The translations under genes and the position numbers were made by a program. A stretch of DNA of 61,686 bases, filler included, from Globobulimina sp. (taxonomy: Eukaryota): assembly GCA_003354225.1 (NCBI GenBank). It is 14 parts of 14 records of this genome, joined end to end, with 100 filler letters (N's around TTAATTAATTAA, not from the genome) between each part and the next. Parts side by side here need not be neighbours in the genome. Positions count along the whole stretch, not along the records: positions 52,975 to 57,283 come from PIVH01001370.1; 13 more parts are not named here. The stretch is one strand, 5' to 3'. Positions within the stretch are counted from its first letter, which is position 1; the number at the start of each line of letters is the position of its first letter. Of the stretch, positions 4,808-58,974 are shown in pieces. The notes beneath the pieces are model-generated. The model did no database searches and had not been told where the DNA came from. It saw nothing but the letters and a program-made list of their open reading frames with translations.

Positions 4808-6100
4808 TTATCTCGATCCAAATAAATGAAATTTGGTGAGGCAGGCAAAATTTGCGTGCATATTACATTCCGCAAAACGGGTTCGTTGACTGGGTAATAT
4901 AATGTCAAACACCTTTTTTATATCGCTTAACCTATATTGACTAGTGAACCAGTATATTTTTGTTTTTCTATTTCTTATTAGTTGTGATTCCAATTTGTTT
5001 TCCATGTATGTTAATATCGCAGCGGTATACTTATAGTCATCGCCATAATGAGCTCTCACAAACTCACAGTCTGCAAAGAGGGGACATTTATTTATTGCTA
5101 TTCTATCCGCCAATAATTTGTGTTTAAATCGAATCATTTTATTGAATACAATTTTTTTACTGATTTTATCACAGAATGGAGGCACTGTGTGTTGTGGCAG
5201 CAAATGAGGATTGGGATTTGCCCAACGTTCATCCAAACAATTATTCACATTATAAAACAAGCGGAATGCACTGAATGCGTTCACCAATTTATTACTACCA
5301 TCTGCATCAAATTCGTCATATTGCGATATATCAATCACAAATATTAATACGTGGATAAAATCACATAATAATTTGCTATAATCACTGTAATTATAATTAT
5401 GATATTTACAGCCTTGAATGTCCCAGAAATTATAAATATTTTGTTCAATATATGCATTATTGAAATAATCATTAAGCTCTTCTTCTGACTCCATGAGATG
5501 TGGAGTGGCATAAATTGCCATCTCCGGATTCAAAAATTCATTCACATAAAAATACTTTATTTTATACGACGTAATGATTGGTTTCGCACAAAATAATACC
5601 AACAAATTGATAATATCAACGGGCAAATTATATTTAATGTATCCTTTCACCAACAATTCATAATTAATTATATTATTACGTTCTGGATCTTGTTTATTTT
5701 GATAATCGCCCATTGTTGCCATTGATTTAACAATTTTCTGAATTTCCTTTTTTTGCATAAAACATAATTCTTTTGGTTTTGCGATTTGGTGAATTAAATT
5801 TAAATATTTATAGGATGAATAACCATGTTTTGAGACTAATGATGAATGCGTATATTCCCTCACTACAAATTCTTCATTTAGATTATATTTGTATTCTTTG
5901 AAACATTCCTTATCTTTAATCTCTTGATTGACATTATTTTGGTCATTGTACATATTTACCAGTCTCTGAATCACTTCTGTTTTACCGCATTTTGGTTCGC
6001 CTATGAATAATATATTTTGTTCACAGATTTTTTTTTTAATCTCTGCTGCCAATGCTTTTGGTTTTACTTTGTGTTGTTGAAAATGTATTGTATTACCCAT
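4808..6100 (-). CDS. Highly divergent heterotrimeric G-protein alpha-subunit-like protein (probable pseudo-GTPase)
   Basis: MG N-terminus, G1 ILFIGEPKCGKT and G3 FWDIQG. G-alpha-like segments VLIFVIDISQYDE, NKLVNAFSAF, VFNKM, KIYWFTS and DIKKVFD occur in the canonical order. Confidence 0.75.
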   Translation of the reverse strand: MGNTIHFQQHKVKPKALAAEIKKKICEQNILFIGEPKCGKTEVIQRLVNMYNDQNNVNQEIKDKECFKEYKYNLNEEFVVREYTHSSLVSKHGYSSYKYLNLIHQIAKPKELCFMQKKEIQKIVKSMATMGDYQNKQDPERNNIINYELLVKGYIKYNLPVDIINLLVLFCAKPIITSYKIKYFYVNEFLNPEMAIYATPHLMESEEELNDYFNNAYIEQNIYNFWDIQGCKYHNYNYSDYSKLLCDFIHVLIFVIDISQYDEFDADGSNKLVNAFSAFRLFYNVNNCLDERWANPNPHLLPQHTVPPFCDKISKKIVFNKMIRFKHKLLADRIAINKCPLFADCEFVRAHYGDDYKYTAAILTYMENKLESQLIRNRKTKIYWFTSQYRLSDIKKVFDIILPSQRTRFAECNMHANFACLTKFHLFGSR

Positions 6101-6176
6101 GTTGAATTTAAAAAACTTTGAAGACAGACAGAGTGACAGACAGTAGCAAAAACTCTAAAGTGACAGTGCAATATCC

Positions 6177-8736
6177 ATGGCAATCCGTTTTTTGTTGCTG
6201 TACATTTTTTCAATCATATTATGTTTCTGTAAACAATCATTGTCACCAGAAAGATGGGCAACTGTATCACGAACAGATGCAAACGCAAGCACTTTTTCCT
6301 TACCACAAACATCACCAACCTTTAATTTACCATCTTCCTTGTCCAACAATGGCACCATACCCATTGTAGCTTATTACCAGCACGAGATCCATATTATTGA
6401 TACATTTAATAATGTAACATACTACACCAACACGCAACAACTAAATGATTGGGCGGTCACTACAGACAAAGAAATACCATTCGTCCCATCTTATACATCT
6501 TACCCTGCATATTTACCGGGTGTCAATGGCACCGCCCTGACAGAAATTACCTCTTTTTTTAATGGCGCCTGTTATACATTTAAATGTTATACCCAAATCG
6601 ATGAATTTTTATATATTTTATATGATTTAGCTCCATATATTATCACATTTGATTTAAGTAAAAGAGAATTTTCAACCACAAGCATTCCGAGCACATACGC
6701 CGGATATTATTGTTTAACCAATAACGGCTCGCATATATTTGCCATTGGTGGCTTTGTAAACATTTTAATAATCTCTGATTTAGCCTCATCGTCCGTTACC
6801 GTCCAATATTCCGCAGATTACCTAGCCAACGATGCCGATTTACCGTCCACTTGTTCTATGGACAACAGCCAAGAAAATATATACATTATTAACGATTTTG
6901 CGATATTTAAGTATTCCCTCTCAAACGACCTATTATCAGTGATATATGACCGAGATTATTCTTTGCCGTACAATGAATATTTTTTATATGATATATATCC
7001 ATATCCCGTAATATCCACCGATGCCACCGATCAAAATATAATTTGGATCCAATCATTATTCGATAAAAAGATATATCCCTTATCCGCGGAAACAAATAAA
7101 TTTCTAACTTGCCGCGTGGATGGCACATCCATCAAAGACCCACATTCACACAACGCATTAGTGTATATCGGCGATTATGTGTTCAAAATGGGTGGAATTG
7201 ATTTTGCTAACTCGATTGCCGTAGTTCCAAAGGGTGACACTAGTTTTTCCTATCAGTGGGACCCAGATTTTATTGACAGTATAAGTTTGATTGAGACGCA
7301 GTTCACAGACCATAGGTTTGTGATCGCTGACTGGTACCATCCTTTTTATCCACTTGGCATAAATTACACGGAGGGATTGGCAGAATTAGGCGATGTGACG
7401 GATGGATACATCCAAATCGAGCTAACTTCATTAGATTTCGACGTGGAAAATATTTTCATCAATATCTTTTCTTCGGAAATCGCACTGAATGACAAAGAAT
7501 GTCGCGTTTGTGCTGATGGCGACTACCTTAATTTAGATGTGGCGTTTTGTTCTAATGCATATGTTTCCTGTTTGGAGGAGGGTTTACGCACTGATTTATG
7601 GGCAATACAGGATGGTATTATCCCACTTGTAAATGAAGATAATTTAATCGACGTGGCACAGTTATCATATTCCATTGAGGCAGCGAGTACAGCTGCGACT
7701 GTGCCAAACTCTGCGGATCCTTCATTTGTATGCAATTCGTTCCCTATTTACCCCGTCTATTTAGCTATAAATATCTCTTTGACGTCGCACGAGTTTGTTG
7801 ATAAATTTTATTTTGTTGTTGATTATGAATATCAATGCAATGGTTGCAGTGTGGCGGATTTTAATGATGAATTATACGCGTTTTCCTCTTCGATTACCAT
7901 CGAATCCGAAGCGTTGGGCGTCAGTGCTATGACAATGGACATAGTGAATCAGAGAAATTGCACCTTTACAGAGAATGGCATCGAATATGAATGTCAGAAC
8001 TATTCATTAGAGACCTTATCTGAGCTGTATTTCGACGGTGAATATGCCGTATCATTGTCGTCCAGCGACACATTTTTGGAAAGCAATCAGATTTTATTAA
8101 GTATATCACCGGAAGCCACTCTGTGCCGTGTGGGCAGTGGCTACGCATCAGAGACGAATTCCTGCCATTTGTGTTTGGACGGCACCTTTTCGATGCAATC
8201 TGACCTGCGGCCATGTATAAGTTGTTCCGGTTTGGATGGCGTGACTTGTGAGGGCAGCAACAGTGTGACCGTATCCTTTCGATATTGGCTCTCCGGATAT
8301 CGGCAATCCACTGATGAGTACATCACGTTATTCGAAATGAATAATAACTCCATCTCTGATGTCAGCAACGATGACATATTAATATCCCATATTTGCGGTT
8401 ACGGGCAATGTTGTGATGAAATAGATGGCTGTGGCTATTCAGAGAATTTCTACAAAAATGCGTTATGTTCCAACAACAGAGACATTACAAGTGCTATGTG
8501 CACGGCGTGCATTGCTGGCGATTACGAGCTATTATCCACCAATGATTGCGGGTTTGTGCCATTTCTGTATTTAATTTATTTCATATTCCATCCTTGCACT
8601 TAATTATTTTGCCAAATGTGAACAGTGATTGTGTGCATTACGACAATATGTATTATTTAATTGGCATTTTTGCCATTGCCTTTTGCTTAGTGTTATATTT
8701 ATCATTCTGCGATGCCAAGCCATTGGACATTATGCT
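6177..8736 (+). CDS. Secreted/membrane Cys-rich receptor-like protein, 3' partial (intron 8552-8625)
   Basis: Signal peptide MAIRFLLLYIFSIILCFC, Kelch-like blades (IFAIGG, VFKMGG), GCC2/GCC3-like repeat CHLCLDGTFS..CISC, motif CGYGQCC..C..CSNNR..MCTAC. The spliced exon gives a TM helix (YYLIGIFAIAFCLVLYLSF). Confidence 0.8.
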
Positions 8737-10536: not shown

Positions 10537-10905
10537 TATTTTACTTCAAATAAAAAGAGAAACGGATGGAGTTATAAGATGTTGAAAGATATAAAATGTG
10601 GATTTCAAAGCTGTAGTGTAGAATATATGGATATCGGTGTTTGTAATTATAATGAACAGATTGTTTGTGCAATTGAGTGTAATTTAAAATTCTTCGCACA
10701 CACAATTTCTGCAACAATTTGATTTCTTCTCGTAGTCCAACAGGATCCTAGCATTCAGTCAGAAGCAACTGTACTAATTCTTTAGTTGGAATAGTCTGAG
10801 TTATCGACAGAAAGACATGAATTCACAAAACAACAATGTGTCTATTCAGACGGTTACCTTCTGATTCCTTAGCATTTTATTATTGTTTGTATTAATATGT
10901 AGGCG

Positions 10906-12807
10906 TTGAAAGGGAAGAGAAAATTAAATTGGATCCCTAAGCATCGACGTGGTAAAAACTATTATAACTCAAAACAGAAAGAGCGCGATGACATTAAGCA
11001 AAACAAAATTTATAATTCTAATGAAATGAAAGAAGAAAAGAAGCAAAACCCATTAAACCATATCAACATCAATATACACCAACAGCTGATGCAAGAAGGC
11101 GAAGCTGATGTTATTGAGGATGACCTCCTCTCCACTTTGTCAATTCAGACCGCTGTTTATCAAAATAATCGATATAAACAATACAATCATCGATATAATA
11201 ATAATTTTAATAGCAATACATTAAAAAGCATTACGTGGAGGGACAAAACTTATTCATGGCGGAAATTCCCAGATTCGAATGATTTGATAAAGAAAATGGC
11301 AGAAATTGAAAAATATGGAGTTCGTGATATTTTTACCCAACGTTCCGTATTCAAGAGATATGGAATAAAAATATTAGAAAAGGATTATTCTGGTCGATTC
11401 ATCGCATTGTACGAAGGAAATATCACTGATTTTATAGCGTGGTGTCATGCTTATTTGCATACCAATTTCAAATATCATTTAGATGTTTTTTCAAGATTGG
11501 ATTTATTCGGCACCTCTAAGGTTTGTGGTATTGATTTACAGAGAAATGCAAAATATGGATATGAAGTTATTTGGCGATTATGCTATTTTGGTTGGTCAGA
11601 TGGACTAAAATATATCATGGAAAAGTTAAAGATCAATCATATTAATGACAGTTTGGAATTGCTGGCCACTGTCTCACAAAACTTGCATGACGATATATTA
11701 AAATATTTGCTACTTCAAAATGATTTGTATCAGCCATTTGATATTAAAACTAGGAATATCAAAACACGTAAAGGCTGGGGAAAGAATATGAATACAACAC
11801 TATGGACCAAGGCTAGAAGCAGTTTAATTTCAGCAATAAAATCTGGAAAGGGATGGTTACATTGTTTAGAAAATATACATTATGCTGATGATATTATCCG
11901 TGCTGTGCATGGATGGGAGGATTCAGATGAAGAGAAACAAGAAAAACAACAAGAACAGGATATGGCATATTTAAATGAAGGGAATCAATTCAATCAAAAT
12001 CAAATGAATGAAATGATGCAACAATTAAACCATATTCAGTTAGAAAGAAATAAGATTAGATTGTCTCCATTATGTATTAAAAGTAGATTAGATTTGATCA
12101 ATGCAATAATTAACAAAACAAAATCTGTAGTATTTAAAATTGAGAGTTGTTATTATGGGCTATGTGTTGCCTCAGCATTGTATCATAGAAGTTTGCAGAA
12201 ACTCATTTTTTGGGCACCGCGCGCTGTCAAGGATTTGATTGATGGACATATTTTCGAACACGTGCCATACAAAAATACTGAATGGGGGTTATTGGGAATG
12301 CATAAAGTTTCAAAAAAACATTATTTGACTGTTTTGAAAATGAAACAAAAAGTTGAATTGAAGCAGTTATTGGTCTCAAATCATACAATCGATGATACAC
12401 AATTGTGGAAAATACAACAATTAAATATTTTGGGTGGGATTTGGATTAAGTTTATTAATAAAGCTGGATATAAATTAATTATTTCATGGAGAAAAGATTT
12501 TGATTGTAACCATATGCCATTGTTGCAGATATCAGATGAGGTGGATAAAGATGATCGATTGTGCAGAGATGTGTTTTCTGTAACAAATAATAATAGGGAT
12601 ACATTATACGGTGAATATTGTAGGAAATATAAACATATTAAAAATAACACAACTCCGTATAACAGAGAAACTATAGGAACTAAAATGAGCACTTATCAAT
12701 TTTGGAATCTTCCAGAGGAAAAAAATAAATTCCAATGTTATAAGCTCAGATTAAAAAATATAGCACAAATAATTGAACAATATAGTAATCGTCACATTAA
12801 CCAATAA
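10906..12807 (+). CDS. Hypothetical protein, possibly with degenerate ankyrin-like helices
   Basis: 633-codon ORF in AT-rich DNA. Segments LCYFGWSDGLKYIMEK and TVSQNLHDDILKYLL resemble ankyrin repeats. Start codon is uncertain. Confidence 0.6.
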   Translation: MKGKRKLNWIPKHRRGKNYYNSKQKERDDIKQNKIYNSNEMKEEKKQNPLNHININIHQQLMQEGEADVIEDDLLSTLSIQTAVYQNNRYKQYNHRYNNNFNSNTLKSITWRDKTYSWRKFPDSNDLIKKMAEIEKYGVRDIFTQRSVFKRYGIKILEKDYSGRFIALYEGNITDFIAWCHAYLHTNFKYHLDVFSRLDLFGTSKVCGIDLQRNAKYGYEVIWRLCYFGWSDGLKYIMEKLKINHINDSLELLATVSQNLHDDILKYLLLQNDLYQPFDIKTRNIKTRKGWGKNMNTTLWTKARSSLISAIKSGKGWLHCLENIHYADDIIRAVHGWEDSDEEKQEKQQEQDMAYLNEGNQFNQNQMNEMMQQLNHIQLERNKIRLSPLCIKSRLDLINAIINKTKSVVFKIESCYYGLCVASALYHRSLQKLIFWAPRAVKDLIDGHIFEHVPYKNTEWGLLGMHKVSKKHYLTVLKMKQKVELKQLLVSNHTIDDTQLWKIQQLNILGGIWIKFINKAGYKLIISWRKDFDCNHMPLLQISDEVDKDDRLCRDVFSVTNNNRDTLYGEYCRKYKHIKNNTTPYNRETIGTKMSTYQFWNLPEEKNKFQCYKLRLKNIAQIIEQYSNRHINQ

Positions 12808-14298: not shown

Positions 14299-14615
14299 TT
14301 TTGAGAGTGAGTTTCGTTTCCCAAATTGATGGTGCTTGTATCGAATTTCTATGCAACAGAGAGGCGTTCAATTTAATTTGTTGATGGTGCCAGTATGAAT
14401 ATCTCTGTCCATAGAAGCGTTCAAATAAGAAACGAAGCCACACATTCACATATGTTTGATAATAATTTTCTTTTGTGTTTAATAATAATAAATATTTTTC
14501 TCGTTCATCTAATACACTGAAATCAATTTTAAATGTGCAATACGTTTCCAATTCTAAAAAATGCGACATTTAAAACCTTGCTAAGTTTTCTTTGGAAAAT
14601 CGCCAAACTAAGTCA

Positions 14616-16816
14616 ATGAACAATAATAGAAACCAAGGAGGATACAACCAACAATACAATGGCTCACAAATGAATTTCAATAACAACCAACCACCACCAA
14701 ATCAAGGCGGTGGACAAGGACAGGGTGGATACAATAATCCGCAACAATCATACGGTTCTCAAATGAATTTCAACCCACAACCAAACCAAGGTAACGGTGG
14801 AAACTTTGGTAGACCCAATCCTCAGCAATATAACAACCAATACGGTGGCCCAGGACCAGGACCACAACCACAACCAAACAATCCAAATCAATCACAAATG
14901 AATTTCAACAATCCAAACCAAGGGGGCTATGACAACAATAACCAACCACCACAGCAAAACAATCCACCTCCACAGCAACAGCAACAACAACAGCCGCCGC
15001 AACAGCCACAAGCACAGCCCTCAGAGCCACAAGAACCACTACAAGCACACGATGATAATTTCAAAGCCAAAGATGGCATGTTTTCCTACAACTCGCTCGG
15101 CAGCGGAGCCCCCGGTGGCAAACCCAAATGGAGCAAAAGCAAGAACCGCATCACCAATCCGCACCAACGCTTTGCCCGCATGGAGATTCGATGGGATATA
15201 TTCAGTGATTTTGCGGGTGGCGGAGGCCAACCACACCGTATCTTATTAAAACATATCCAAGACCCCGACAACGAGAGTACAGAGCGGTTGCTATACTTGG
15301 ACGGCAACGAAGTGGTGAATGAGATCAGCAAAGATTGCAAGTTTGAGCTAGACATCGGCGATGAGATAAGTGGCCAGGATGAGATCGATGTGGTCATCGA
15401 ACATAACCAGGAACTGACGCGTTATGACTATTTCCTGTATGTCAACGACGTGGAATACACTGAAAAGGTGACGCCGCACAGCAAGCGTACGGGTGGTATG
15501 AAGCAGACGTTGCGTACCAACGAAGTGAGCGCCAAAGAGTTGAAGAAGAAAGACAAGAAACGGTGGGAGGAACGCAACCAATTGAAAGTGAAAGAGGAGA
15601 AGCAAAAGAAGAAGAAAGTGAGGAAGAAGAACAAGAGGAAGAAGCAGCCGGTCCCAAAGATACAGAAAAAGGAGAAGAGGAAGAAAAAGAAAGACAAGGA
15701 TAAGCACAAAGGGAAGGAGAAGAAAGGTGGCTTTTTTGGCGGCTTTGGGAAGAAGAAGAAGAAAAATAAGGACAAGGCACAGCAGCCCAGACAAGCGGAG
15801 GAAGAGCCGTATGGTGGATGGAATAATGGACCGCCACAGGATTACGATCGAAACCAAGATTGGAATAATGGACCACCGCCACAGCAACAACCGGCGCAGG
15901 GACAGTATGGCAATGATCCACATTTGCAACAATCGCAGCAGCCGCAGGTGGACGATGCGTGGGAAGATACAGAGTCTGAATACGAGACAGACAGTGAGGA
16001 TGATGGGCCGCTTCAACAAGTACAACACAGTATGTTTTTTATAGTGTATGCTTTGAAACTGTATAGAAACGTTACTGAGTGTAAGGATAATTGTGTTTGT
16101 ATGCTTATGTGTATTGTGTAGATAATCAGCAACAGCAATATCAGCAGCAACCCCAACAATCTTTTTACGGACAGCAGAATCCACAGAATCAATACCAACA
16201 AAATGCAAATCCACAACAGTCGTTTTATGGACAGCAGACTCCACAGAATCAGTTTCAGCAACAACCGCAACAATCTTTTTATGGACAGCAGAATCCACAA
16301 AACCAATATCAGCAACAACAGGGACAGCAACAGTCATTTTATGGTCAACCCAATGCACAGAATCCACAGAACCAATTTCAACAAAATCCGCAACAGTCGT
16401 TTTATGGCAATAACCCGCAAAATCAATATCAACAACAACCACAGCAATCGTTTCATGGCCAAGGGCAGCAACAGCCAGATCTTCCGGGACCACCCGGACC
16501 ACGCAATGAAGCAGCAAATCAGAATCAAAATCAAATGGGATTTGTTGAGCAGGGAATGGAACGAATGGGTGTTAATAATCAAGCAAATAATAATCAACAG
16601 CCACAGCAGGATATGGATGATGGGGCACAGCCACAGGATAATGCCGATAATCCATATAATAATCAATATGGCCAACATCCACAGCCACATGGACGGGGAC
16701 AGGGCCATCATGGACATATGAGAAGTTCTAATCCTTCCGGTCTTTATAATAATGAGCCAGAGTTAAAACAAGCGGAAGAGAGCAGCAGTGAATATAGTAC
16801 TGAATCGGATAAGTGA
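14616..16816 (+). CDS. Q/N/P-rich low-complexity protein with a FAIM-like beta domain (intron 16030-16121)
   Basis: Domain IRWDI..HRILLKH..ERLLYLDGNEV..YDYFLYVNDVEY resembles FAIM1. Lys-rich tract. A GTATGT..TAG intron joins the two ORFs in frame. Confidence 0.8.
16140..16460 (+). repeat. Coding tandem repeat QQSF(Y/H)GQQNPQNQ(Y/F)QQ, about 6 copies
   Basis: Visible in ORF 16091-16816 as units of about 51-60 bp. Confidence 0.9.
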
Positions 16817-45476: not shown

Positions 45477-48464
45477 TTATTGAACATTATTAGAGCCTGC
45501 AGCTTCAGACATTCTCCATACTGCCTTATCTATTTTAATTTTGGTTCGAGGACATCGTTTCCATTCTCCACAGACACTTTTATTTTGACAGTTACTCCAA
45601 TGGTCACCAGATTTTAAATCAATACATGGACTACATTTGCAATCCAAATAGCGGCGATATATTACATTTGGTGAATGGATATTATATTCAAAGTAGTCAT
45701 TGATATCTTTTATTGGCGTACATACCACATCTTGATGGATATGATTGATTACATTGACTCCAATTGGTATAAATTTACGGGATGATATATGTTCATCAAT
45801 TAATTTAGTATGCAAATAACGAATAATGGTCATATCATATGTTTCAACTGATGGATCATAATATACTGCTCCAGCACTCACTCCTCGATTAACTTCACAT
45901 TTTATTGTTGAACCTTCTGAATCACAGAGCGACTTTCCATGTTGGGGACAAGTGAATGTCCAAAAAAGATTTTTCAATTTCAATCTTTTTTTGATGAATC
46001 CCAAACCAATAATAAAAGCAGAACAGCTAAACTCACCCCTATCACTATAGCCATAAAAGTTATGTAATTCGGAGTTTAACTGCTCTTTAAAAAATGTTTG
46101 CATATTTTTAATATGCTCCTCAACAACATACAATGCAGCAGCCCAATCATGCTGTGGATCAGATGAAAAATATGAAAATTGTAACTCTTTAGTATACATA
46201 TTTGGTTCATCATCACTCATTTCCTCATTATTATTAGGTTCAGCAGCAGTAACTCTATTATTTGTACAGCATAAAGAAATTCCATCTCGATTGCTCCATT
46301 GGCCTGCTGTTTTAATCATGGATTGAAGTTTAATATTATTAATATAATCAAAATGTGTTTGTGCAGTGTTTGGAGGGATATTAGTTTGTGATTTATCAAT
46401 CCAATCACGTCTAGTACGGTGGTTGTATATATATGTAATGTGGTGTTTGGAATATTTAATATATTCCTCCAAATATTTGGATTTCAAATCAGTCCAATTG
46501 ACACTGATTTTATGAATTCCATCATCATAATTATCGGAGTTTGAATTTTGATATTTTTTATGGTAATCATATTTAAATAATAAACCATTATTAACATTGA
46601 ATGACGAACAAAAATTACCACCAATAACTTTCTCTAAATATGCCGCTCCGCAATTAATATTATCACATTCAGATCGAAAACATTTTGAATCTGGATATAA
46701 TGAATGGTTATTTTTGCATGATATTTTTTTTATGAATTTAGTGGGTGTTAATTTAAATAAACCATTTAAAATTGGACATGTTTTGCAATCATGACAGTCA
46801 CATTTTTCATTTTTATTAATATTATTCGGGCATTGTTTTGTTCCGCAACTATGGTATTTGGGTGATGTTAAAATATTTTTCATCAATTTGGATATATTGG
46901 CCCAATTATGGTGAACTGAACAATGACTAAAATCTGAATCATCAACATGATAAATAAATATTGGTCTGATAGTAACGAACCATTTTTCAGACGGAATGGG
47001 TTTATTATACTTACTGCATATTAATTTTGTTGTTTTATGTGATTTCCATTCAGTATACACTGTGTTAAACGGAGCATAACAAATATGTTGGGGATGAATG
47101 ATTTTATTTTTATTTTTATCCGTTAAAATGCGTGTTTTTTTAGTATTCGGATTTGGATGGGTTGTTGTAAGCCAAAAATCTAATGCCCATTGGAACAGTT
47201 CAACAGGATATACCAATCTCACATTATTGACAACATTGCACAAAGAACGAGTATCACCGTTATTGAAACGTTTTTTTAATGACTTAATTTTGGAGTAATT
47301 TTTGTGTTGAAATGTAAATGGAGATAATTGCTTAATAATATCTGGATTTGCTATTGAACCATCGGGATTTAAACAACACAATGCTGATAATAATTGTTCC
47401 TTTAATTGCAAATCAGCGTCAGAATAATAGTTACGGATTACCCTCAATACACGGGCAATCTCATTAATTGTCAATATTTGTTCACCAATTGGAAATTGTG
47501 ATAATTTTGCAGGTAAATATTTATTTTTGGATATAATATTTAAAATATTTGTCACTGATTCTTCATTATTTTCACGTAATAATAATTTAGCAATTTCATT
47601 GGCAATTTGTTTCTGTTTGGTTGCACTATTTATTTTATTTAATGCAGGTTTAATATTTCGGCAGAATGCAGGTTTAATATTCCGGTAGAATTCATTTTCA
47701 ATTTTTTTTTTATTCCAATTGCAATTTGTTCCAGATAAAAATTCCACACATTCAGATAAAAAATCTTTTTTCGCACTAAGATGTTTTTTCGCCAATGCAA
47801 ATTGGTACAATTGTGCTTTAAACCAGCCATCATGTGAATACGAAGCTTGGTGTTCTGTGCCATGGAAATCTTCGGCGTGTAGCGGACTTTGGCTGCGACT
47901 AAATCTTTTTTAAGCAGAGAAAGAAATGTTAATTGAAAAAATAAATAAAAAGATATAATAAATTACTCAGTGTTTAATTTTTGTTTTTTTGCAGGTGGCT
48001 CTGTATCCGCATCATCACTACTAACGCCATCATGATTTGCATCTTCTTCGGACTCCATATTTTTTCTTTTTTTATTCTTTTCCATTGCATCCATTGCAGC
48101 CGCTGCTTCCTTCGCTTCTTGTCTTTGTTTCCAATTTTTATAATCATATTTTTCATCCAATCTCTCCTTAACAGCAATATATACCTTTTTAACAACAGGA
48201 TCCATTCCATACATTAATCCTAAATCATCATAGCTAAGCAATAATTTCCCTTTTTTATTATCCGGATTTTCCAATATCCCTTTATCAATCCGATAATATC
48301 TCCCTCCGTTATACTCTTTAAAAATAGAGTTTGCTGCAAAGCAAGCCCATAATCGCGGGATCCTGCCATAAATACGTCCGTTGACTAATTGTTTCATCGT
48401 TGTTTTGTTTGTTGTCAACCTGTCCATGACAATAAACAAAACATCCTGCTTTTTTTTATTTTTT
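45477..48464 (-). mobile_element. Sola-like (probably Sola2-type) DDD transposase gene, intron-containing (intron 47905-47966), 5' partial
   Basis: CSVHHN, HFDYINN, YSDRGEF, FTCPQHGKSLCDSEGSTIK and C-terminal RRYLDCKCSPC..C..GEW. Splicing fuses ORF 47963-48439 (NLS-like PPAKKQK) in frame. Confidence 0.72.
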
Positions 48465-50711: not shown

Positions 50712-52229
50712 TTACACATCAAAATTAGATGCAAATACAGGGATTCCTTTTTTATTCACATAGTTTGCAACATTATATGCAGTTTTTGGATTTGATACAA
50801 TAAAAACAGCCTCAGCGCCAAACTCCTTTGCTTTTTGAACAGTTAATAACGATAAATCAGGGTGTTTCTTTTTTGTGGTATCATATAATATAACATTTGG
50901 TAAAGGTATTAAAATATCGACAATAAATTGCGGATAATTATTTTTATGATCTCTGGCCACCCAAACTAACGATATTTGCACATCGAAATGTTTGGTATTA
51001 ACAACATACGGTATTAAGGGCGCAATGCCAGCCCCGGTGGCCAATGCAAACACTTTCCGCCACATAAATAGGCCTTGACTAAAATTCGGTGGCTTCACAC
51101 GATGGATCCAAAAATTAGTCTCATTTAATTCACCTTTTTTGGCATTCAATGTTAATTTTTTCGTAAAATCACCCAAATTCTTAATTAATACCAAAGAACG
51201 ATGACCTTTATCCTTATCAAATGGCAATGGCGTAATACCCATTACATGGAATTCCCTCCAATTGGTTGATAATTTGCATACAGAGCCCATAGGGGACCAT
51301 ATGTCAAATATGAATGCTGTGGATAGGCCGGACTTTGATGGTATAATTTCAACATTTTTACCGCGTATTTTATGAATCATAAGCCATGGATATAACGTCA
51401 ATGTAACCAAACCAATGGCAAATATTGATGGGGTGTTTGCTGTTAAATGTATGAATAATGCTATTCCATTATAATTTGATTCGTTGTATGCTTTTTTGTT
51501 TACAAAATAAATATGTGACACCAAGAAACATAATGATAACCAATTTAAATAACGATGTAGGACTTCAAATGAATTATGATAATAATACCTGAAACAGGGC
51601 GCAGCCGAAGTACATATTAACAGTAACAATGCCGGTAAGGCGAAAGCAGTGATTGTGATGCCATTAAATTGAAGATTTTCAGCCATAAATACATCATAAA
51701 AATATATTGCATTCCAAAGATATGCGGTGCCACCAAAGGAGACGTGCAGTCCGCCAATGCAGTCAAGTAAACGACTGGCGTGATATTTAAAATATGTATT
51801 CAAACAAAATAAATGTTTTATTGCGCCATAAACGAGCCATAGGAATAATCGGTCTCGAATTAATGCAGCAAAAAATACAGGACCTACCGCAAAGAAACCA
51901 AGTTCTGTTATCATACTATTGCTTGAACACCAGATACAAAACAGAACAATATTGGCAATAATGATTGGTATTTGCCATAACCAATAATGAACATATATTC
52001 GTATCGCATAACATCTACAAATATTAACTATGATCGCACCTCCTTTGAACTTTTCTGATTTGCCATTGGATACATTTGATACAACAAATGATGCACGTTC
52101 TTGCATACTGATGCTGACTTTATTTAAACGTTTCTCTAATTTATTATTTATTGCATACTGTTCAATCAATTTTTTGTTCAATATCTCGTTCTCTGCACGT
52201 AATTGCAATAATTCTTTCTCGTCAGCCAT
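50712..52229 (-). CDS. Membrane ferric-reductase-like flavoprotein (TM domain plus FNR-type NAD(P)-binding domain)
   Basis: GGLHVSFG, HNSFEVLHRYLNW, EFHVMG, GDFTKKL, ATGAGIAP and AEAVFIVSN..GIPVFASNFD; several TM helices. Confidence 0.8.
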   Translation of the reverse strand: MADEKELLQLRAENEILNKKLIEQYAINNKLEKRLNKVSISMQERASFVVSNVSNGKSEKFKGGAIIVNICRCYAIRIYVHYWLWQIPIIIANIVLFCIWCSSNSMITELGFFAVGPVFFAALIRDRLFLWLVYGAIKHLFCLNTYFKYHASRLLDCIGGLHVSFGGTAYLWNAIYFYDVFMAENLQFNGITITAFALPALLLLICTSAAPCFRYYYHNSFEVLHRYLNWLSLCFLVSHIYFVNKKAYNESNYNGIALFIHLTANTPSIFAIGLVTLTLYPWLMIHKIRGKNVEIIPSKSGLSTAFIFDIWSPMGSVCKLSTNWREFHVMGITPLPFDKDKGHRSLVLIKNLGDFTKKLTLNAKKGELNETNFWIHRVKPPNFSQGLFMWRKVFALATGAGIAPLIPYVVNTKHFDVQISLVWVARDHKNNYPQFIVDILIPLPNVILYDTTKKKHPDLSLLTVQKAKEFGAEAVFIVSNPKTAYNVANYVNKKGIPVFASNFDV

Positions 52230-52344
52230 TGTTCCGAAATATAAAGATAATATAAGCAGACTGTTTTCGTGTTTAAACTTTAATACTTAATGACTTAATA
52301 CTTAATGGGTGCGGTTAAAATTTGTTATTTAACTTTAGCATAGT

Positions 52345-52974: not shown

Positions 52975-55900
52975 TTTGCTGAGGTGGTCGTTGTTGTTGA
53001 GGTGGTTTCCATTGTTGCTGCTGTTGAGGTGGTCGTTGTTGTTGAGGCGGTTTCCATTGTTGTTGCTGGGGTGGTCGATATTGTTGCTGAGGTGGTTGGT
53101 GTTGTTGTTGTTGTTGTTGTGACCATGGATTTTGAGGTGGTGGTGGTGCCCCCCATGGATTTTGTTGTTGTGGTGGTGCTCCCCATGGATCTTCGGGTGG
53201 TGGTTGTGCTCCGGTTAAACCAAATTGTCCCGCCACTTCTCCGGCTTGTCCAAGATGGTGAGCTACATCGGGTGCATCTGGCAGATCTACCCCTAACTGC
53301 CCCGCTACCCCTTGAGCCTTGCCATACGCGTCCTGCAGTACAGTATCACATACACAGTATTACACACAATATAATAGATATATATATATATATAACTTGT
53401 GCTTGTTGAGCTAAACCTTGTCCTTTCTCCATTAGCCCAGCAATACCTCCTTGTTGATCCACAAATCCTTTTGCTTTACTCATAAATCCTTTTAATTTCC
53501 CCCCAAGTCCACCCCCTTTCTTACTTTTAGCTTTACCTCCTCTTTTCTTCCTACCTCCCCTTTTTTTTCTAGCTCTTTTTGGCTTTCTCTTCCGTGACCT
53601 TTTTGGTTTCGATCTTCGTCTGCTTGATTTTCTTCTGCCACCGCCTCGTCTCTTTAATCTCCTTCTCAGTGAGCTAGAATATTCATTGTGATCTCCACCA
53701 AGCAAAGCCATGTCACCCTTTGCTGCCGATAATAAATACCTTCTTTCTTGCTTACGTTCAACCGGAACATAATCAGAACCTTAGCATGTAACATAATTTT
53801 GCAGCAATAATTGTATATGCAATATGCATAAATCATAACATATGTTTTTAAATTTTGCTGCAGTTTCTCCATTTTTTAAAAAGGTAATAATGAATTAAGG
53901 TTACTGTTGATTTTCAATTTGGATATATATGTTTGAAAAATGGAGAAACTACATATGTTATGATTTAATGTAAAGAATTGAGCACGAGATTGACAAACCG
54001 GAATTTGCTTCATTACCATCAGAATAATATTCATTATCATCGTAATAATATCCATTATCATCATAATAATATCCGTCATATTCATCGTCATATTCATCGT
54101 CATATTCATCGTCATATTCATCGTCATATTCATCGTCATATTCATCGTCATAATCTTCATCATAATAATACCCATCAACCTCATCGTCATATTCATCATC
54201 ATTCAAATCTTGTTGTTTTAAATCATCATAAAAATCAGCTACTTCTGCATCATACTCATAATAATTTCCCATATCTTCGTCTGCCGCAGATTTCCGTCTA
54301 CCAAAACCATCCGGTTTCACATTTTGCAGCACTTCCGTCCAAATCCATTGTGGCAGCCATGACGGTTTTTGCCGAGGCATTGATTTGGCAAATTGTCGGT
54401 ATTGATGCCATGGTATGCGATGTTTATGTTTTCTGTATGCAATCGGATTGTGGAACTTATGTCCTTTCATAGGATGATTAAATATCCGCCGTGGTGGTAC
54501 CGCTCGCAATCTCAATATGTGTACGTATGGTAAACGTTGCATCATATTACGGCCATTTGCATTTATATATGGTGGGGCAAACGGCATATTATCTAATGGA
54601 GGCAATGGGGATCTATATGCGTGTGGATAGTTCGTTGGTGGTTGTAATATGCGCACCGGGGCCATAAAAGAATCCATTACATTGACTAAGTTCAATAAAT
54701 CCGCTGGTCCTAAAATCTCGCTCTCTAAACATCATTTTGCAAGTAAGTAAAAAAAAAAACTTCACTGCAAAGCTTGCATGATCATGGCGTGTATACTTAA
54801 CTGTCTGCTTTGAGGGCAGGTTTACATGGATGTTTTTGTCGGCCATCATCATCATAATCGATGTACTGACAAATACAGAAATTATTCCTGCACTTCCGAA
54901 CCATTTTATACCCTCTATGTGTCACTATGTGTTTCGGTTTGAATTTGTTACGATCGTTCCATTCCTCATCATCAACGTCCAATATGTCATGGTTCACAGC
55001 CCAATGCATGGCTTGCAATGCATTTGTAGCGGCATGTTGTGTATCGAGATCATAATCAAATGCTTCCGTGGCTTTGTTGTTTTTATTCAATTCCTTGTAT
55101 TCATCCATCATGTCTTGGTATGCTGCGGATCGATAAAATGGTGATTTGTGATATTTATGTCGACCCACTTTCACATTTACACGCATACTCTGTCGCGGGT
55201 TGTCATTATGGGCCATGGTGGCACATATTTGCACAGATTGTAATGATTTACATTTTCGGGTAGCTCGAGTGGTATCTTCTGCTGCCTCATCGCGTGCGTT
55301 GATGTTACTGATTTCATTCCATTCTTTGTCTCCATTGAATGATAATAATAAATCTGCGAATTCAGCTTGTAACTGACTCAATAACTCTGTGTTAATTATT
55401 ATTGCAAAAAAAAAAAAAACAACAAAACCCGAACCGTTTTCAAAAACAAAATATCAGACCTTGAGTCTCTTCATATTGCTGTTCATAATAGTCACCATCC
55501 ACAGCATCATAAAAATCATTATCACCGAACTCCATTCCATAATATTCACTGAAATAATCATTGTAATATCCATCATCTTCATACCCACCTTCACCTTCAG
55601 CATCGTCATCGTCTTAAACAAAAAAAAGATTTTCACTTAAAAATCACTTACAAACATGTCATGACAGAGACTGTACCTGTATTTTGCTCATAATATCCAC
55701 CATAAGCATCATAATACACCTTATCCTCATCAGCGTAATCCACCAGCCTCCGCCTGAACGATTGTTCGTGTTGCTGTTCCTGTTCCTGTTCAGGTTCAGG
55801 CACAGGTAATTTTGGCTGTTTATCCAATTCCCTTAACCGCTCTAATTCAGCTTCTTCTTTCTCTTTGATGTACTGCTTCAATTCTTTCAATTCCTTTAAT

Positions 55901-57283
55901 TCCGCCCTTCGGTCCATTGCAACTTCATCCCCAAACCCTTGCCGTGGGTGTTCAGAATCATACCCATTCCCTTCATCATCATACTCACTCTGGTCATAGC
56001 CATATGGAACATCTTCTTCACTGCTTAATTGTCTTCGTTCCACGACAGATCTCAACGCATCTTGTTCATTATCATAATATCCATAATCATCATACCCATC
56101 ATCATCATCGTAATATCCATCATCATCATAATAATAATCATCACTGTCACTGTCATGCAATGCGTTTTGTAACTCATCCTCATCCTCATTATTATTATAA
56201 TAATACTCATCATACCCATACACATTGTAATACGTATCATCCATATCCTCATTACTGGCGGCGGCAAATCTAAATTGATAGTCATCATCGATTGCGTCAT
56301 GGTCAATGCATAGTTTATGTTGCACGCCAGGTATGGCCATGGAACATTTACTTAATTCGCCATTGGTTTCATCCCAATGAGCATCATTATCAAACTCAAA
56401 TTCATGTTCATCAAAATAATACATAAAGTCGCCATAACCATCATAAGCACGCAATACATCGCCATCAGCATCCTCAGCCATGTTATTATCATCCATCCTC
56501 GCATTAAATCCTGAGCCATAGTCACAATTTAAACACTTAAACAACGCCTCATCATCACCTATTTTATCGCGTGTCCACAACCAATATCCCAACATGTCAC
56601 CATATTCAACTATATATACAATGAATATTATTACAAATCCGTACAAAAAGCAATGTATACAATGTGCGAGGATAAAAAAATAAAAACTACACACATTCTG
56701 TATCAAAATCATAACCGTCATCCTCATCAAATATACCATCACCATCCACCTCACTTTCATCAGTTATAAAATCACCAAAATCATCGCTCATCGCATCCAC
56801 TGTATGGGAGCCTAAGTCGTCACCATCATCATACCCTTCCTCATCGTCACTAGCATGGCCATCTTGATCCTGTGCATCATCATCGTCACCATAATAATAT
56901 TCCCAATCTGCATCTGACATGGCATCATATGTCCGATGATCTGTATCATCGCTACTTTCATCATAATCATACATATCGCCACCATACGCATCATATTCAT
57001 ATCCCCTTTCCTTCATCGCCTGTGCTAACCGCCTGTGTACATACTCCCATCTATCGTCTATGTGCAATCTCCGTCGCACATTAAATGGATCCTTGGCGCC
57101 CGACATCTTCATCATTGTATAGGCCTCGTCATAGCCCATCTCATCGGGCACTTCTTCCATATTGGTCATTTTGCCCTGTTCAGCGATGTTGAGTGTACTG
57201 CCTTGTTGCTGTTGTTGCTGTCCTTGACCCGCACCATAACCTAACATATGCCCCATACCTGAGCCTCCGCCATAGCCTGGACT
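52975..57283 (-). CDS. Very large acidic D/E/Y-rich modular protein, 7 exons, partial at both ends (about 1240 aa visible)
   Basis: GT-AG introns 56610-56694, 55613-55676, 55387-55459, 54725(or 54710)-54801, 53780-53998 and 53333-53396 join all minus-strand ORFs of this contig in frame. Confidence 0.85.
54075..54152 (-). repeat. 12-bp coding tandem repeat encoding (YDDE)n
   Basis: tcatattcatcg repeated about 6 times. Confidence 0.95.
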
Positions 57284-57708: not shown

Positions 57709-58914
57709 TTAATGATAATCACTATCATTAACAGTCATTTGTAAAGATGCTTGTTGCTTTGCTAACCTCTTTGCTTCATCCGCAAATCTTTTGGTTCTTC
57801 TGTTATTTATAACCACCAAAATAACCGCAACAATCACTACAACAAAAAATTCTTTATGGTCCAACAAAATCCCAAATTGCATCCCAATATATAAAAACAA
57901 GAATATTACAGTTTGAATAAATACATTCACAAATGCGTTTTCAGCCATCATTCGCTCATAAATTTGATATTCCAATCGTTTCAATTCATTTTTCGCCCCT
58001 AAACCTGCTATCTCATCCTCGTCATTTTCCTCATCCCCATCAATTGTAGAAGTAAAATCAACTTTGATTTGATACAATTTATCATGGATTGCAGGATGCG
58101 CTCGAATTAATCCATACACCCATTCAGACGTTTCGACTAAAAAAAACACAGCAATCGCTTTCTCAAACGCTTCAATAGAAGTTCTAGCCAACGCAATAAT
58201 AACTAATGATGCCATTGACCCCGTTAACCACACAATTAATTTAGTAATAGTCAATGTTACCGCCAGCCACTTTTGTTTATGGTAATATGGTAAATGCTTG
58301 GACAACGTCACTAATTTTCCAGTTTGATTTAATCCCTTAAATAGATATAAAACCATACAAACATCAGCCACTAACTGCGAAAATAACACAGATAAATCAA
58401 CATCATCTGGCTCTGTGGGGTCAGTGTCTAATAAAGTTAAATCTGCGTAGGAAATGTCCATTGTATAATTATACGTTGCGTTGAGTAGTGTGAAATCCAC
58501 CACACCGCTGTCTAAATATACTTGTGTTCCTTGACCTATTAAATTCGCAACAGCGAAATCTGTCGCGTCATTGTATAACACAAAGAAACCGCCAACTTGG
58601 ATTACTGTAATTAAGCATAAAAAGAAAGAAAATATTGCTTTGTCGCAAGGTGAAAATCGAGCTTGCCATATTGATTGAGGCCCTTTTTCGGTGGATACCA
58701 TTGTGGCTCTCAGGATTGCAAATGTGTTATAAATATCTTTTTTGATTTCTAAAGTTTGAACACCAGTTTCAATATCATTTTGTTCAGATGTAGCTGTTGT
58801 GTTTTGTTTCTCCTCTTTGTGGACTTCTGTGTTTATCGCGTTTCGCGGTGTAGGTTCGGTCTCTGTTTGTTGTGCTTCTAGTGTTGTTGTTGTTGTTTGT
58901 TCAATTTCTGACAT
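57709..58914 (-). CDS. Multi-pass membrane protein of unknown function
   Basis: 401-aa ATG ORF with about 6 hydrophobic segments and the motif AIAVFFLVETSEWVY. Confidence 0.75.
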   Translation of the reverse strand: MSEIEQTTTTTLEAQQTETEPTPRNAINTEVHKEEKQNTTATSEQNDIETGVQTLEIKKDIYNTFAILRATMVSTEKGPQSIWQARFSPCDKAIFSFFLCLITVIQVGGFFVLYNDATDFAVANLIGQGTQVYLDSGVVDFTLLNATYNYTMDISYADLTLLDTDPTEPDDVDLSVLFSQLVADVCMVLYLFKGLNQTGKLVTLSKHLPYYHKQKWLAVTLTITKLIVWLTGSMASLVIIALARTSIEAFEKAIAVFFLVETSEWVYGLIRAHPAIHDKLYQIKVDFTSTIDGDEENDEDEIAGLGAKNELKRLEYQIYERMMAENAFVNVFIQTVIFLFLYIGMQFGILLDHKEFFVVVIVAVILVVINNRRTKRFADEAKRLAKQQASLQMTVNDSDYH

Positions 58915-58974
58915 TGAATAAGTAGTATTTTACTTGTGAGTTGTGATTCAAGAGTTTTTTGAAAACTTAAAATA

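Follow-up and report, generated by a model that had tools for sequence, protein, structure and literature searches.

The closest analogues of the protein family described here, by function and not by ancestry, would be silicanin-1, the silicalemma-associated proteins (SAPs) and the silaffin precursors of diatoms. We analysed a 61,686 nucleotide (nt) stretch of DNA from Globobulimina sp. (assembly GCA_003354225.1), hereafter the window, and focused on a gene fragment that fills one complete contig (PIVH01001370.1, positions 52975-57283, minus strand). The gene is real, spliced and expressed, and its place in an undescribed family is well supported. This family is perhaps best described as akin to the RXL-bounded, highly charged biomineralization precursors of diatoms. 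A preliminary description of the contig had proposed a freely secreted polyprotein; the protein looks membrane-anchored instead, because most homologues that have a C-terminus carry one C-terminal transmembrane helix, followed by a cytoplasmic tail. Taken together, the identity, expression and predicted topology of the gene product are conclusions in which we have high confidence.

Comparison with described systems

The repeat units of the silaffin precursor Sil1p end in RRIL or RRNL, and these motifs are removed at maturation and missing from mature silaffins (PMC4557024), in agreement with the diatom RXL parallel drawn in the preliminary description. Silicanin-1 is a 426-residue, Asn/Gln-rich protein of predicted type 1 membrane topology. 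It starts with a signal peptide and a short stretch that terminates in RRL, after which come a large lumenal domain containing many Cys residues, one transmembrane helix and a cytosolic tail of 20 residues; the lumenal part is cleaved from the rest and ends up within the silica (PMC5525289). In the SAPs, a signal peptide and an RXL site are combined with a lumenal region of low complexity, one transmembrane helix and a cytoplasmic tail that has a conserved segment, and the lumenal part stays in the mineral (PMC5647440). The identity of the diatom RXL protease is unknown according to these sources (PMC5525289, PMC5647440, PMC4557024).

Homology to diatom silaffins, silacidins or cingulins was not found in phmmer and profile searches covering 1.84 and 5.8 billion proteins, which returned only foraminiferal or unnamed matches. 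The family shows no sequence similarity to the diatom families and is therefore not classed as a member of any of them. It shares with the diatom precursors the occurrence of RXL or RRxL at the borders of charged units (six sites in the window protein, positionally conserved in seven of eight proteins). The type I outline predicted for the full-length relatives resembles that of silicanin-1, and an RRL or RRFL shortly after their leader recalls the RXL domain that follows its signal peptide. However, the relatives are 1300-2050 residues long and Asp/Tyr-rich, with several internal RR(x)L motifs, and whereas cleavage and association with silica have been shown for silicanin-1, the mineral here would be calcite, if any. 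Like the window protein, Sil1p, silacidins, cingulins and frustulins are polyprotein-type precursors with charged units bounded by RRIL/RRNL or RXL (PMC4557024, PMC5647440). Their units are short and Lys/Ser-rich, are processed into charged peptides, and lack folded modules or a membrane anchor, whereas the units described here are long, switch from acidic to basic and back, and contain Cys modules. The outline predicted for the relatives matches that of the SAPs in its signal peptide, RXL, low-complexity lumenal part, single helix and tail with a conserved segment. The SAPs, however, have a Ser-rich low-complexity region in place of an Asp/Tyr-rich one, are far smaller and lack sequence similarity to the family.

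Two systems outside the diatoms offer partial parallels. Site-1 protease (S1P/SBT6.1) cuts RRXL or RXXL substrates, such as the precursors of plant RALF and pectin methylesterase, in the Golgi lumen, membrane-bound substrates included. The dibasic-plus-Leu motif is common to these substrates and the present family, but the HRRL and GRRL-type sites seen here lack the P4 Arg preferred by S1P. The acid-rich and skeletal matrix proteins of corals are very Asp-rich, are secreted or type I membrane proteins, and have an ectodomain that ends up in the CaCO3 skeleton. They resemble the present family in Asp content and, going by the topology predicted here, in being secreted or type I, but are animal proteins with no detectable homology; to our knowledge no RRxL code has been reported for them, although we made no search for one. 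Acid-rich and membrane-anchored skeletal matrix proteins of corals are also mentioned in the available text on the SAPs (PMC5647440).

Gene structure, splicing and coding constraint

The window consists of 14 unrelated contigs of ~4.3 kb each, separated by N runs around a ttaattaattaa spacer. The gene model was built by linking seven long open segments, which change frame, via the shortest in-frame GT-AG introns. It has seven exons and six GT-AG introns, comprising 3727 coding bases (1242 codons) with no stop codon, and is open at both ends. Contigs of four public runs (X1, X4, X6 and X7) were aligned to the stretch. X4 comes from another study and is near-identical in sequence; X6 and X7 come from a third study, and most of their pieces are 90-99% alike. 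The kind of run behind the spliced contigs is unrecorded or guessed, and none is listed as RNA. X1 is DNA-like, its records 2, 4, 5 and 8 reading through introns 6, 4, 2 and 1. The features of the gene, in the order of transcription and with residues numbered as amino acids (aa) of the window protein, are as follows.

56695..57283, minus strand: exon 1 (aa 1-196), 5' end open, placed by frame and model, joined to exon 2 in X4, X6 and X7; a Gly/Gln-rich start, a conserved ~45-aa segment up to VRRRL, then HRRL, after which the first Asp/Tyr-rich acidic block begins
57065-57079, minus strand: VRRRL, in exon 1 at the end of the conserved ~45-aa segment
57026-57037, minus strand: HRRL, in exon 1
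56610..56694, minus strand: intron 1, 85 nt, GT-AG, phase 1; joint 56609>56695, CT..AC, in X4, X6 and X7
55677..56609, minus strand: exon 2 (aa 197-507), which also contains an Asp/Tyr-rich block and a Lys/Glu helical stretch
56209-56695, minus strand: conserved 4-Cys region (aa 197-330), in exon 2 and crossing intron 1 to the last base of exon 1
56026-56040, minus strand: ERRQL, in exon 2
55897-55914, minus strand: DRRAEL, in exon 2
55744-55758, minus strand: FRRRL, in exon 2
55613..55676, minus strand: intron 2, 64 nt, GT-AG, phase 1; joint 55612>55677, CT..AC, in X4 and X6
55460..55612, minus strand: exon 3 (aa 508-558), an acidic Asp/Tyr/Gly cassette of 51 codons
55387..55459, minus strand: intron 3, 73 nt, GT-AG, phase 1; X6 record 15 joins 55386 to 55460
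54802..55386, minus strand: exon 4 (aa 559-753), containing modules A and B
55142-55372, minus strand: module A, in exon 4; helix, W-N-E-I, K-C-x8-C, strands
54803-55015, minus strand: module B, in exon 4; E-W-N-D, K-C-x4-C-x-C, H-P-C
54725..54801, minus strand: intron 4, 77 nt, GT-AG, phase 1; joint 54724>54802, CT..AC, in X4, X6 and X7
53999..54724, minus strand: exon 5 (aa 754-995)
54300-54647, minus strand: conserved Pro/His/Arg-rich basic block, in exon 5, terminating in W-L-P-Q-W-I-W (54339-54359)
54075-54155, minus strand: YDDE repeat, in exon 5, inside the very acidic block that follows the basic block
53780..53998, minus strand: intron 5, 219 nt, GT-AG, phase 1; joint 53776>53996 (cut +3), CT..AC, in X4 and X7
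53397..53779, minus strand: exon 6 (aa 996-1123), which also has a Gly/Ala/Gln-rich stretch
53733-53747, minus strand: ERRYL, in exon 6
53655-53669, minus strand: LRRRL, in exon 6
53511-53666, minus strand: Lys/Arg/Gly tract, in exon 6
53333..53396, minus strand: intron 6, 64 nt, GT-AG, phase 0; predicted only, as the shortest in-frame GT-AG intron
52975..53332, minus strand: exon 7 (aa 1124-1242), 3' end open; a Gly/Ala/Gln stretch, then a Gln/Pro-rich tail with 30-nt and 45-nt repeats

The joints in X4, X6 and X7 for introns 1, 2, 4 and 5 are exact, with CT..AC ends on the plus strand, and the joint of intron 3, missing from the table of joints, was read from the alignment of X6 record 15. 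In this record exon 3 sits between exons 2 and 4; its presence in X4 record 11 was deduced from a 156-nt middle part that is not listed. X4 records 12, 11, 10 and 9, which overlap one another or lie end to end, link exons 1 to 6. The preliminary description had joined the whole contig into one open reading frame (ORF) of more than 1200 aa by means of six introns, and the evidence bears this out: the frame is free of stops, five of the six introns are matched exactly by spliced contigs, and the chained exons 1-6 support one transcript unit. The proposed splices were thus confirmed for introns 1-5; intron 6, which was not seen spliced, is placed by frame and by a similarity to the relatives P0004 and P0003 that continues unbroken across the junction.

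Two kinds of joint were rejected as splicing. An X6 joint at 53178>53441, with CT..AG ends and unknown letters between them, lies in repeats and does not fit the gene model. Long joints such as 54209>56118 are found in the DNA-like X1 too, and were read as cross-mapping of acidic repeats.

Twenty-nine of the 40 listed differences between the runs and the window are synonymous and 11 are non-synonymous (155 further differences lie outside the listing). All eight exonic indel events or clusters have a net length divisible by three (-3, +3, +1/-1, +7/+2, +12, +1/+2, -3 and +3), and the only indel of another length, 2 nt at 54749 in X1, lies within intron 4. The reading frame is under selection. 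Exons 2-5 (933, 153, 585 and 726 nt) are each divisible by three and introns 1-5 are all in phase 1; therefore, any of exons 2-5 could be skipped with the frame intact. It should be noted that an X7 contig omits 62 nt at 54074-54164 and carries 14 others, a net difference of 48 nt or four repeat units fewer, and the copy number of the YDDE repeat therefore varies in frame between relatives.

Relatives of the Globobulimina protein

Searching 1.84 billion cluster representatives with phmmer and exon 4 as the query gave 15 matches at E<=1e-3, 10 at E<=1e-10 and four at E<=1e-30, the best having an E value of 1.6e-77. Searches with profile A1, built from 13 sequences, recovered 17 near-length and 11 longer proteins. 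The named matches belong exclusively to Nonionella stella, Bolivina argentea, Bulimina marginata and Elphidium margaritaceum, all of the order Rotaliida, and the remaining matches are unnamed environmental or plankton-catalogue records. Source descriptions read 'Uncharacterized protein' at most, and otherwise consist of transcript or ORF identifiers. Judged by these matches, the family is apparently restricted to foraminifera. A dozen or so shorter relatives (P0009, P0015, P0027-P0036 and P0038) stem from the 'merc' source of ocean plankton transcripts, and the family is probably also present in planktonic relatives.

No Pfam family was detected in the seven exon translations, the best hit being MtrE at E 0.028 (14.2 bits against a cut-off of 26.6), or in 15 relatives at curated cut-offs; the near-length and longer profile matches likewise contain no Pfam domain. 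A literature search found no paper describing such a family, and none joining foraminifera with RXL or silaffin.

From the VRRRL segment through the Gln/Pro tail, the window protein runs colinear with P0002, P0003 and P0004 of Nonionella. The segment of exon 1 that precedes RRRL aligns to residues 385-433 of P0003 (tblastn E 1e-6), exon 2 gives tblastn matches of E 5e-35 to 7e-17, and exon 7 aligns to the Pro/Thr/Gln-rich region of P0003 and P0004. As transcriptome isoforms with identical stretches in common, the Nonionella and Bolivina sequences do not count as independent. The Nonionella relatives P0002, P0003, P0004 and P0039 have a mosaic-like appearance, in which identical stretches are common and whole blocks are kept or omitted, suggesting either cassette-exon alternative splicing or mixing of paralogues in assembly. 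In the 90%-identity cluster of P0039, as in that of P0006, the labels Nonionella stella and Bolivina argentea are mixed, which reflects either strong conservation between the two species or cross-contaminated transcriptomes.

Modular order and structure

The same order of elements recurs in all members, as judged with profiles cut from A1: RR(x)L, an acidic block, module A/B, a basic block and the next acidic block. The acidic blocks consist of Asp, Glu and Tyr, and modules A and/or B are small units with conserved Trp and Cys. The basic block is composed of His, Arg, Lys and Pro, with a Trp-rich end of the Arg/Lys-Pro-x-Trp-Leu-Pro-x-x-x-Trp type; its profile matched the window protein at 7e-23 and nine of ten relatives at 1e-7 to 4e-34. 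In alignment A1, W128, W142, C165, C170 and C172 are at least 90% conserved, and alignment A2, which covers the exon 2 region, has invariant columns F65, C88, I92, H97, K98, C100 and A116. All 10 Cys residues of the window protein lie inside conserved modules, and none in the disordered blocks. The predicted external part is a modular polyampholyte.

AlphaFold modelling of exon 4 with A1 gave a moderate model, with a mean predicted local distance difference test score (pLDDT) of 72 and a predicted template modelling score of 0.35, in which module A forms a helix and a four-stranded sheet, the linker is poorly predicted and module B is beta-rich. Searches with this model returned no Foldseek match in the PDB at E<=1e-3, and the best VIA-align hit among 48,161 chains had a Z score of 4.7 (the usual background being 7-8), mostly over residues 1-78. 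A sequence search of the PDB with profile A1 also gave no match at E<=1, and the ESM Atlas yielded no usable match. The model of the conserved exon 2 region, from an eight-sequence alignment, had a mean pLDDT of 51.5 and was excluded from fold searches. The modelled Cys modules match no recognized fold, which is not proof of a new one. Thioredoxin-like domains of the calsequestrin kind were not found by Pfam in the seven exon translations and 15 relatives, or by the PDB sequence search at E<=1.

Charge and the RR(x)L motif

The 1242 residues contain 13.7% Asp, 8.3% Tyr, 8.2% Gly, 7.6% Glu and 7.3% Gln, and carry a net charge of -123. In 30-residue bins the charge ranges from -20, at the YDDE repeat (a 12-nt unit in 7.6 copies with 96% match), to +20, at the Lys/Arg tract. 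The blocks named in the preliminary description were all found, namely the DDYYYDDDGYYDDDD block, the YDDE repeat, three Cys-paired modules, the Pro/His/Arg block, the Lys/Arg/Gly tract and the Gln/Pro tail, as were the six RR-L sites that it listed (VRRRL, HRRL, ERRQL, FRRRL, ERRYL and LRRRL).

The motif RR.L occurs five times, where a global shuffle predicts 0.22 and shuffles inside 60- or 30-residue bins predict 0.55-0.58; none of 5000 shuffles reached five. Counting HRRL, the RR(x)L sites total six. RR.L is also enriched in P0003 (three against 0.29, p 0.0025), P0004 (two against 0.11, p 0.005), P0002 (p 0.019) and P0022 (p 0.02). Enrichment is not significant in P0005, P0006 or P0007, and RR(x)L is therefore mainly a trait of the window gene's subfamily, together with one family-wide site.

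Conservation of the sites in relatives, which had been set beforehand as a point on which the idea could fail, holds for four to five of the six. VRRRL is kept along with the 45-residue segment upstream of it, as RRRM in Nonionella proteins and as RRRL in a duplicated copy in P0003. ERRQL corresponds to RRQL in P0002 and RRRL in P0004, and DRRAEL to RRAxL in all aligned relatives; FRRRL is kept in both subfamilies. ERRYL and LRRRL together match one RRRL or RRL where acidic sequence gives way to basic sequence in P0003, P0004 and P0002, and in P0003 and P0004 the place of the exon 6 LRRRL is taken by RRRL followed by a basic tract. In seven of eight non-redundant proteins an RR(x)L/M lies at most 120 residues upstream of the main module A, a placement with a tail probability of ~4e-4 under uniform placement, in a statistic that ignores kinship. 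The stretch from this motif to module A has a net charge of -4 to -43, and the flanks of the motif are variable. The simplest common denominator of all predicted sites is R-x-L, the motif of diatoms. That the hydrophobic residue following the arginines is conserved suggests a role for Leu in recognition.

Computed cuts after each Leu would yield units with net charges of -87 (aa 87-391), -13, -54 (aa 486-1011) and +32 (aa 1038 onward), in line with the earlier proposal that the sites delimit oppositely charged units. Of the 103 Tyr residues, 64 have at least three Asp or Glu within five residues and no Lys or Arg within three, an acidic setting that would match the known preference of tyrosine sulfation.

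Topology of full-length relatives

No hydrophobic segment or signal peptide was found in the contig's protein by hydropathy, and both ends of the gene lie off the contig. A signal peptide beyond the contig, as had been supposed, is plausible: all five non-redundant, Met-started relatives with the N-terminal module (P0002, P0003/P0039, P0005, P0022 and P0045) have a variable hydrophobic leader, called by a hydropathy window in four and by eye in P0045. The leader ends with small residues at -3/-1 in three of the five, and a conserved mature start follows directly. A single C-terminal 19-residue hydropathy window of 2.5-2.9 is present in P0003, P0004, P0005, P0006/P0022 and P0007, and P0039 has the same helix as judged from its printed sequence. 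After the helix come Arg/Lys residues and then a short tail, whose acidic Ser clusters may be sorting signals. P0002 and P0045 have no helix at their C-terminal end, P0045 appearing to be cut short, and both ends of P0046 are ambiguous.

These features argue for type I membrane proteins, of which the window fragment would be the middle of the lumenal or extracellular part. Since the relatives have a signal-like leader and one C-terminal helix, everything encoded here would face the secretory lumen or the exterior.

Two further observations were made on the relatives. The tails of P0003, P0005, P0022, P0007 and P0039 are of two conserved types, matching the two subfamilies. An RRL or RRFL is found ~30-45 residues past the leader, at position 62 in P0002, 68 in P0003, 69 in P0022 and 55 in P0045, within a variable loop of the first module.

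Other contigs of the window

Adjacency across the contig joins of the window (1-61686) has no biological meaning. The remaining contigs encode a myosin motor, an ATR-like kinase, a PRMT3-like methyltransferase, a PPR protein, a phosphatidylserine synthase and ankyrin repeats. They also contain seven long open frames of 406-814 aa with no Pfam family at E<=1e-5 (4808-6154, 6159-8603, 10903-12807, 14574-16121, 45477-47909, 50712-52286 and 57709-58929). No second member of the family was found on the other 13 contigs by tblastn with five relatives.

Proposed function and alternative explanations

We tentatively interpret the protein as a membrane-delivered component of an extracellular organic layer beneath the test that is matured at RR(x)L, a reading that falls a little short of probable. 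In this scheme the protein would enter the endoplasmic reticulum and then pass through the Golgi as a membrane protein, where RR(x)L would be a set of recognition sites for an endoprotease of the secretory pathway, as with diatom RXL. Such proteolytic use of the motif is plausible, though we would stop short of calling it likely. Cutting would release from a membrane stub strongly polyanionic fragments rich in Asp and Tyr, along with one or more polycationic fragments. As is known of acidic matrix and store proteins, poly-Asp has a low affinity and a high capacity for Ca2+, and the acidic fragments are predicted to bind it with high capacity. The basic blocks could associate with their acidic counterparts or with the lining's sulfated polysaccharides, and the fragments would build up an organic layer outside the cell, at its surface. 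This layer would most plausibly be the organic template or lining for the rotaliid calcite test; a role in the test or in its organic template is possible, and we consider it doubtful.

A number of observations weigh against this interpretation. The mechanism is a prediction for every member of the family, and acidic low-complexity ectodomains also occur in proteins unrelated to mineral. Topology was judged by hydropathy and by eye, and the leader and anchor of the window gene, whose own termini lie off the contig, are deduced from relatives only. Removal of intron 6 was not seen in any spliced contig of X4, X6 or X7. RR.L is not enriched in the distant subfamily (P0005, one against 0.70 expected; P0007, none; P0006, p 0.08), the counterpart of ERRQL in P0003 is a non-RR sequence, HRRL lies within an insertion specific to the window protein, and in P0046 no such motif precedes module A. 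Restriction to Rotaliida could be a sampling artefact of the choice of foraminifera sequenced so far; as a control on database coverage, the phosphatidylserine-synthase ORF of the window gave no match at E<=1e-20.

The published work on foraminiferal tests adds to these points. Proteins of the Amphistegina lobifera test proteome have at most 7.5% Asp and 8.4% Glu in the available part of the report (PMC11648905), and six motifs of the family are absent from two supplements of that proteome. The absence is a weak negative, given that the species is a different one and that very acidic proteins are poorly recovered by mass spectrometry. The available text on the Ammonia calcification transcriptome discusses carbonic anhydrases with acidic low-complexity regions and contains no protein resembling the family (PMC10284544). 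Among the transporters, carbonic anhydrases and moderately acidic proteins in the accessible portions of the two reports there is no dedicated, very acidic matrix protein (PMC11648905, PMC10284544).

The same protein and topology could serve a non-mineral purpose, as a glycocalyx or adhesion protein of the cell surface or extracellular matrix, on the pseudopodia or in the organic lining, in which acidic and mucin-like stretches would provide hydration and stickiness and RR(x)L would reflect ordinary proprotein maturation. The relatives do have long Pro/Thr/Gln-rich, mucin-like and Lys/Glu-rich helical regions between the modules and the anchor, unnamed relatives come from ocean plankton catalogues so that the family is not bound to one habitat, and the missing motifs in the test proteome supplements would be expected. 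No datum here separates this explanation from an organic layer beneath the test, but the 13.7% Asp and the confinement of named matches to calcareous Rotaliida lean weakly towards Ca2+ or the test, and we place a glycocalyx or adhesion role on the unlikely side. It is also conceivable, although distinctly unlikely in our judgement, that the protein stays uncut and membrane-tethered as a high-capacity Ca2+ buffer in vacuoles or vesicles, with RR(x)L as a binding or structural motif that caps or pairs acidic blocks. The net charge of -123 over 1242 residues would suit such a buffer, as would the cytoplasmic tails of the relatives, since the acidic Ser-rich clusters they carry act in endosome and Golgi sorting in other systems; the weakness or absence of the motif in the distant subfamily argues against an indispensable cleavage code. 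However, a conserved motif with variable flanks in disorder is more typical of a recognition site, and the exact RRxL parallel in diatom precursors concerns cleavage.

Two explanations that would remove the protein from the secretory pathway, or from biology altogether, fare much worse. The contig's protein by itself has no signal peptide or hydrophobic segment, its Lys/Arg/Gly tract resembles a nuclear signal, and acidic-basic alternation is common in nucleolar proteins, all of which would suit a cytosolic or nuclear disordered protein with the Lys/Arg tract as a nuclear localization signal, RxL as a cyclin-docking motif and acidic tracts of the histone-chaperone kind. We regard this as very improbable: colinear relatives place the region between a signal-like leader and a positive-inside C-terminal transmembrane helix, and the conserved Cys residues are confined to small modules, which fits disulfide-bonded extracellular domains. 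The cyclin-docking and nuclear-signal reading was rejected on the non-cytosolic topology that these relatives give for the motif-bearing region, and cytosolic readers such as cyclins are ruled out because the context of the motif would be external and disordered. Finally, much of the sequence is repetitive (the tandem-repeat listing for the contig has 14 rows) and contigs of all runs break at repeats, as might be expected of an open frame arising from low-complexity, strand-biased DNA or of an assembly chimera. Spliced contigs from two other studies, the 29:11 excess of synonymous differences, the frame-keeping indels and homologues with E values as low as 1.6e-77 refute such an artefact, to which we attach scarcely any probability.

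A bolder version of the cleavage hypothesis would make RR(x)L the rhizarian counterpart of diatom RXL, oomycete RxLR and apicomplexan PEXEL/TEXEL, an ancient secretory cleavage code that spans stramenopiles, alveolates and Rhizaria, and would make the family the template of rotaliid calcification. A membrane-anchored precursor, once delivered to where chambers form, would be cut into polycationic partners and polyanionic peptides that bind Ca2+ and are possibly Tyr-sulfated, and these peptides would co-condense into the primary organic sheet. We consider this proposal improbable.

Significance

The molecular basis of the organic sheet that templates foraminiferal calcite is still largely unknown. 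The family supplies candidates that are large, apparently lineage-restricted, expressed, extremely Asp/Tyr-rich and, from the predicted topology, routed via the secretory pathway. If the family proves to be unrelated to the test, it would nonetheless be a new family of modular proteins, whose small Cys domains are new as well. The conserved motif of the family has the same form as the motif that bounds the units of diatom silaffins, and raises the question of whether RXL-type processing spans stramenopiles, alveolates and Rhizaria.

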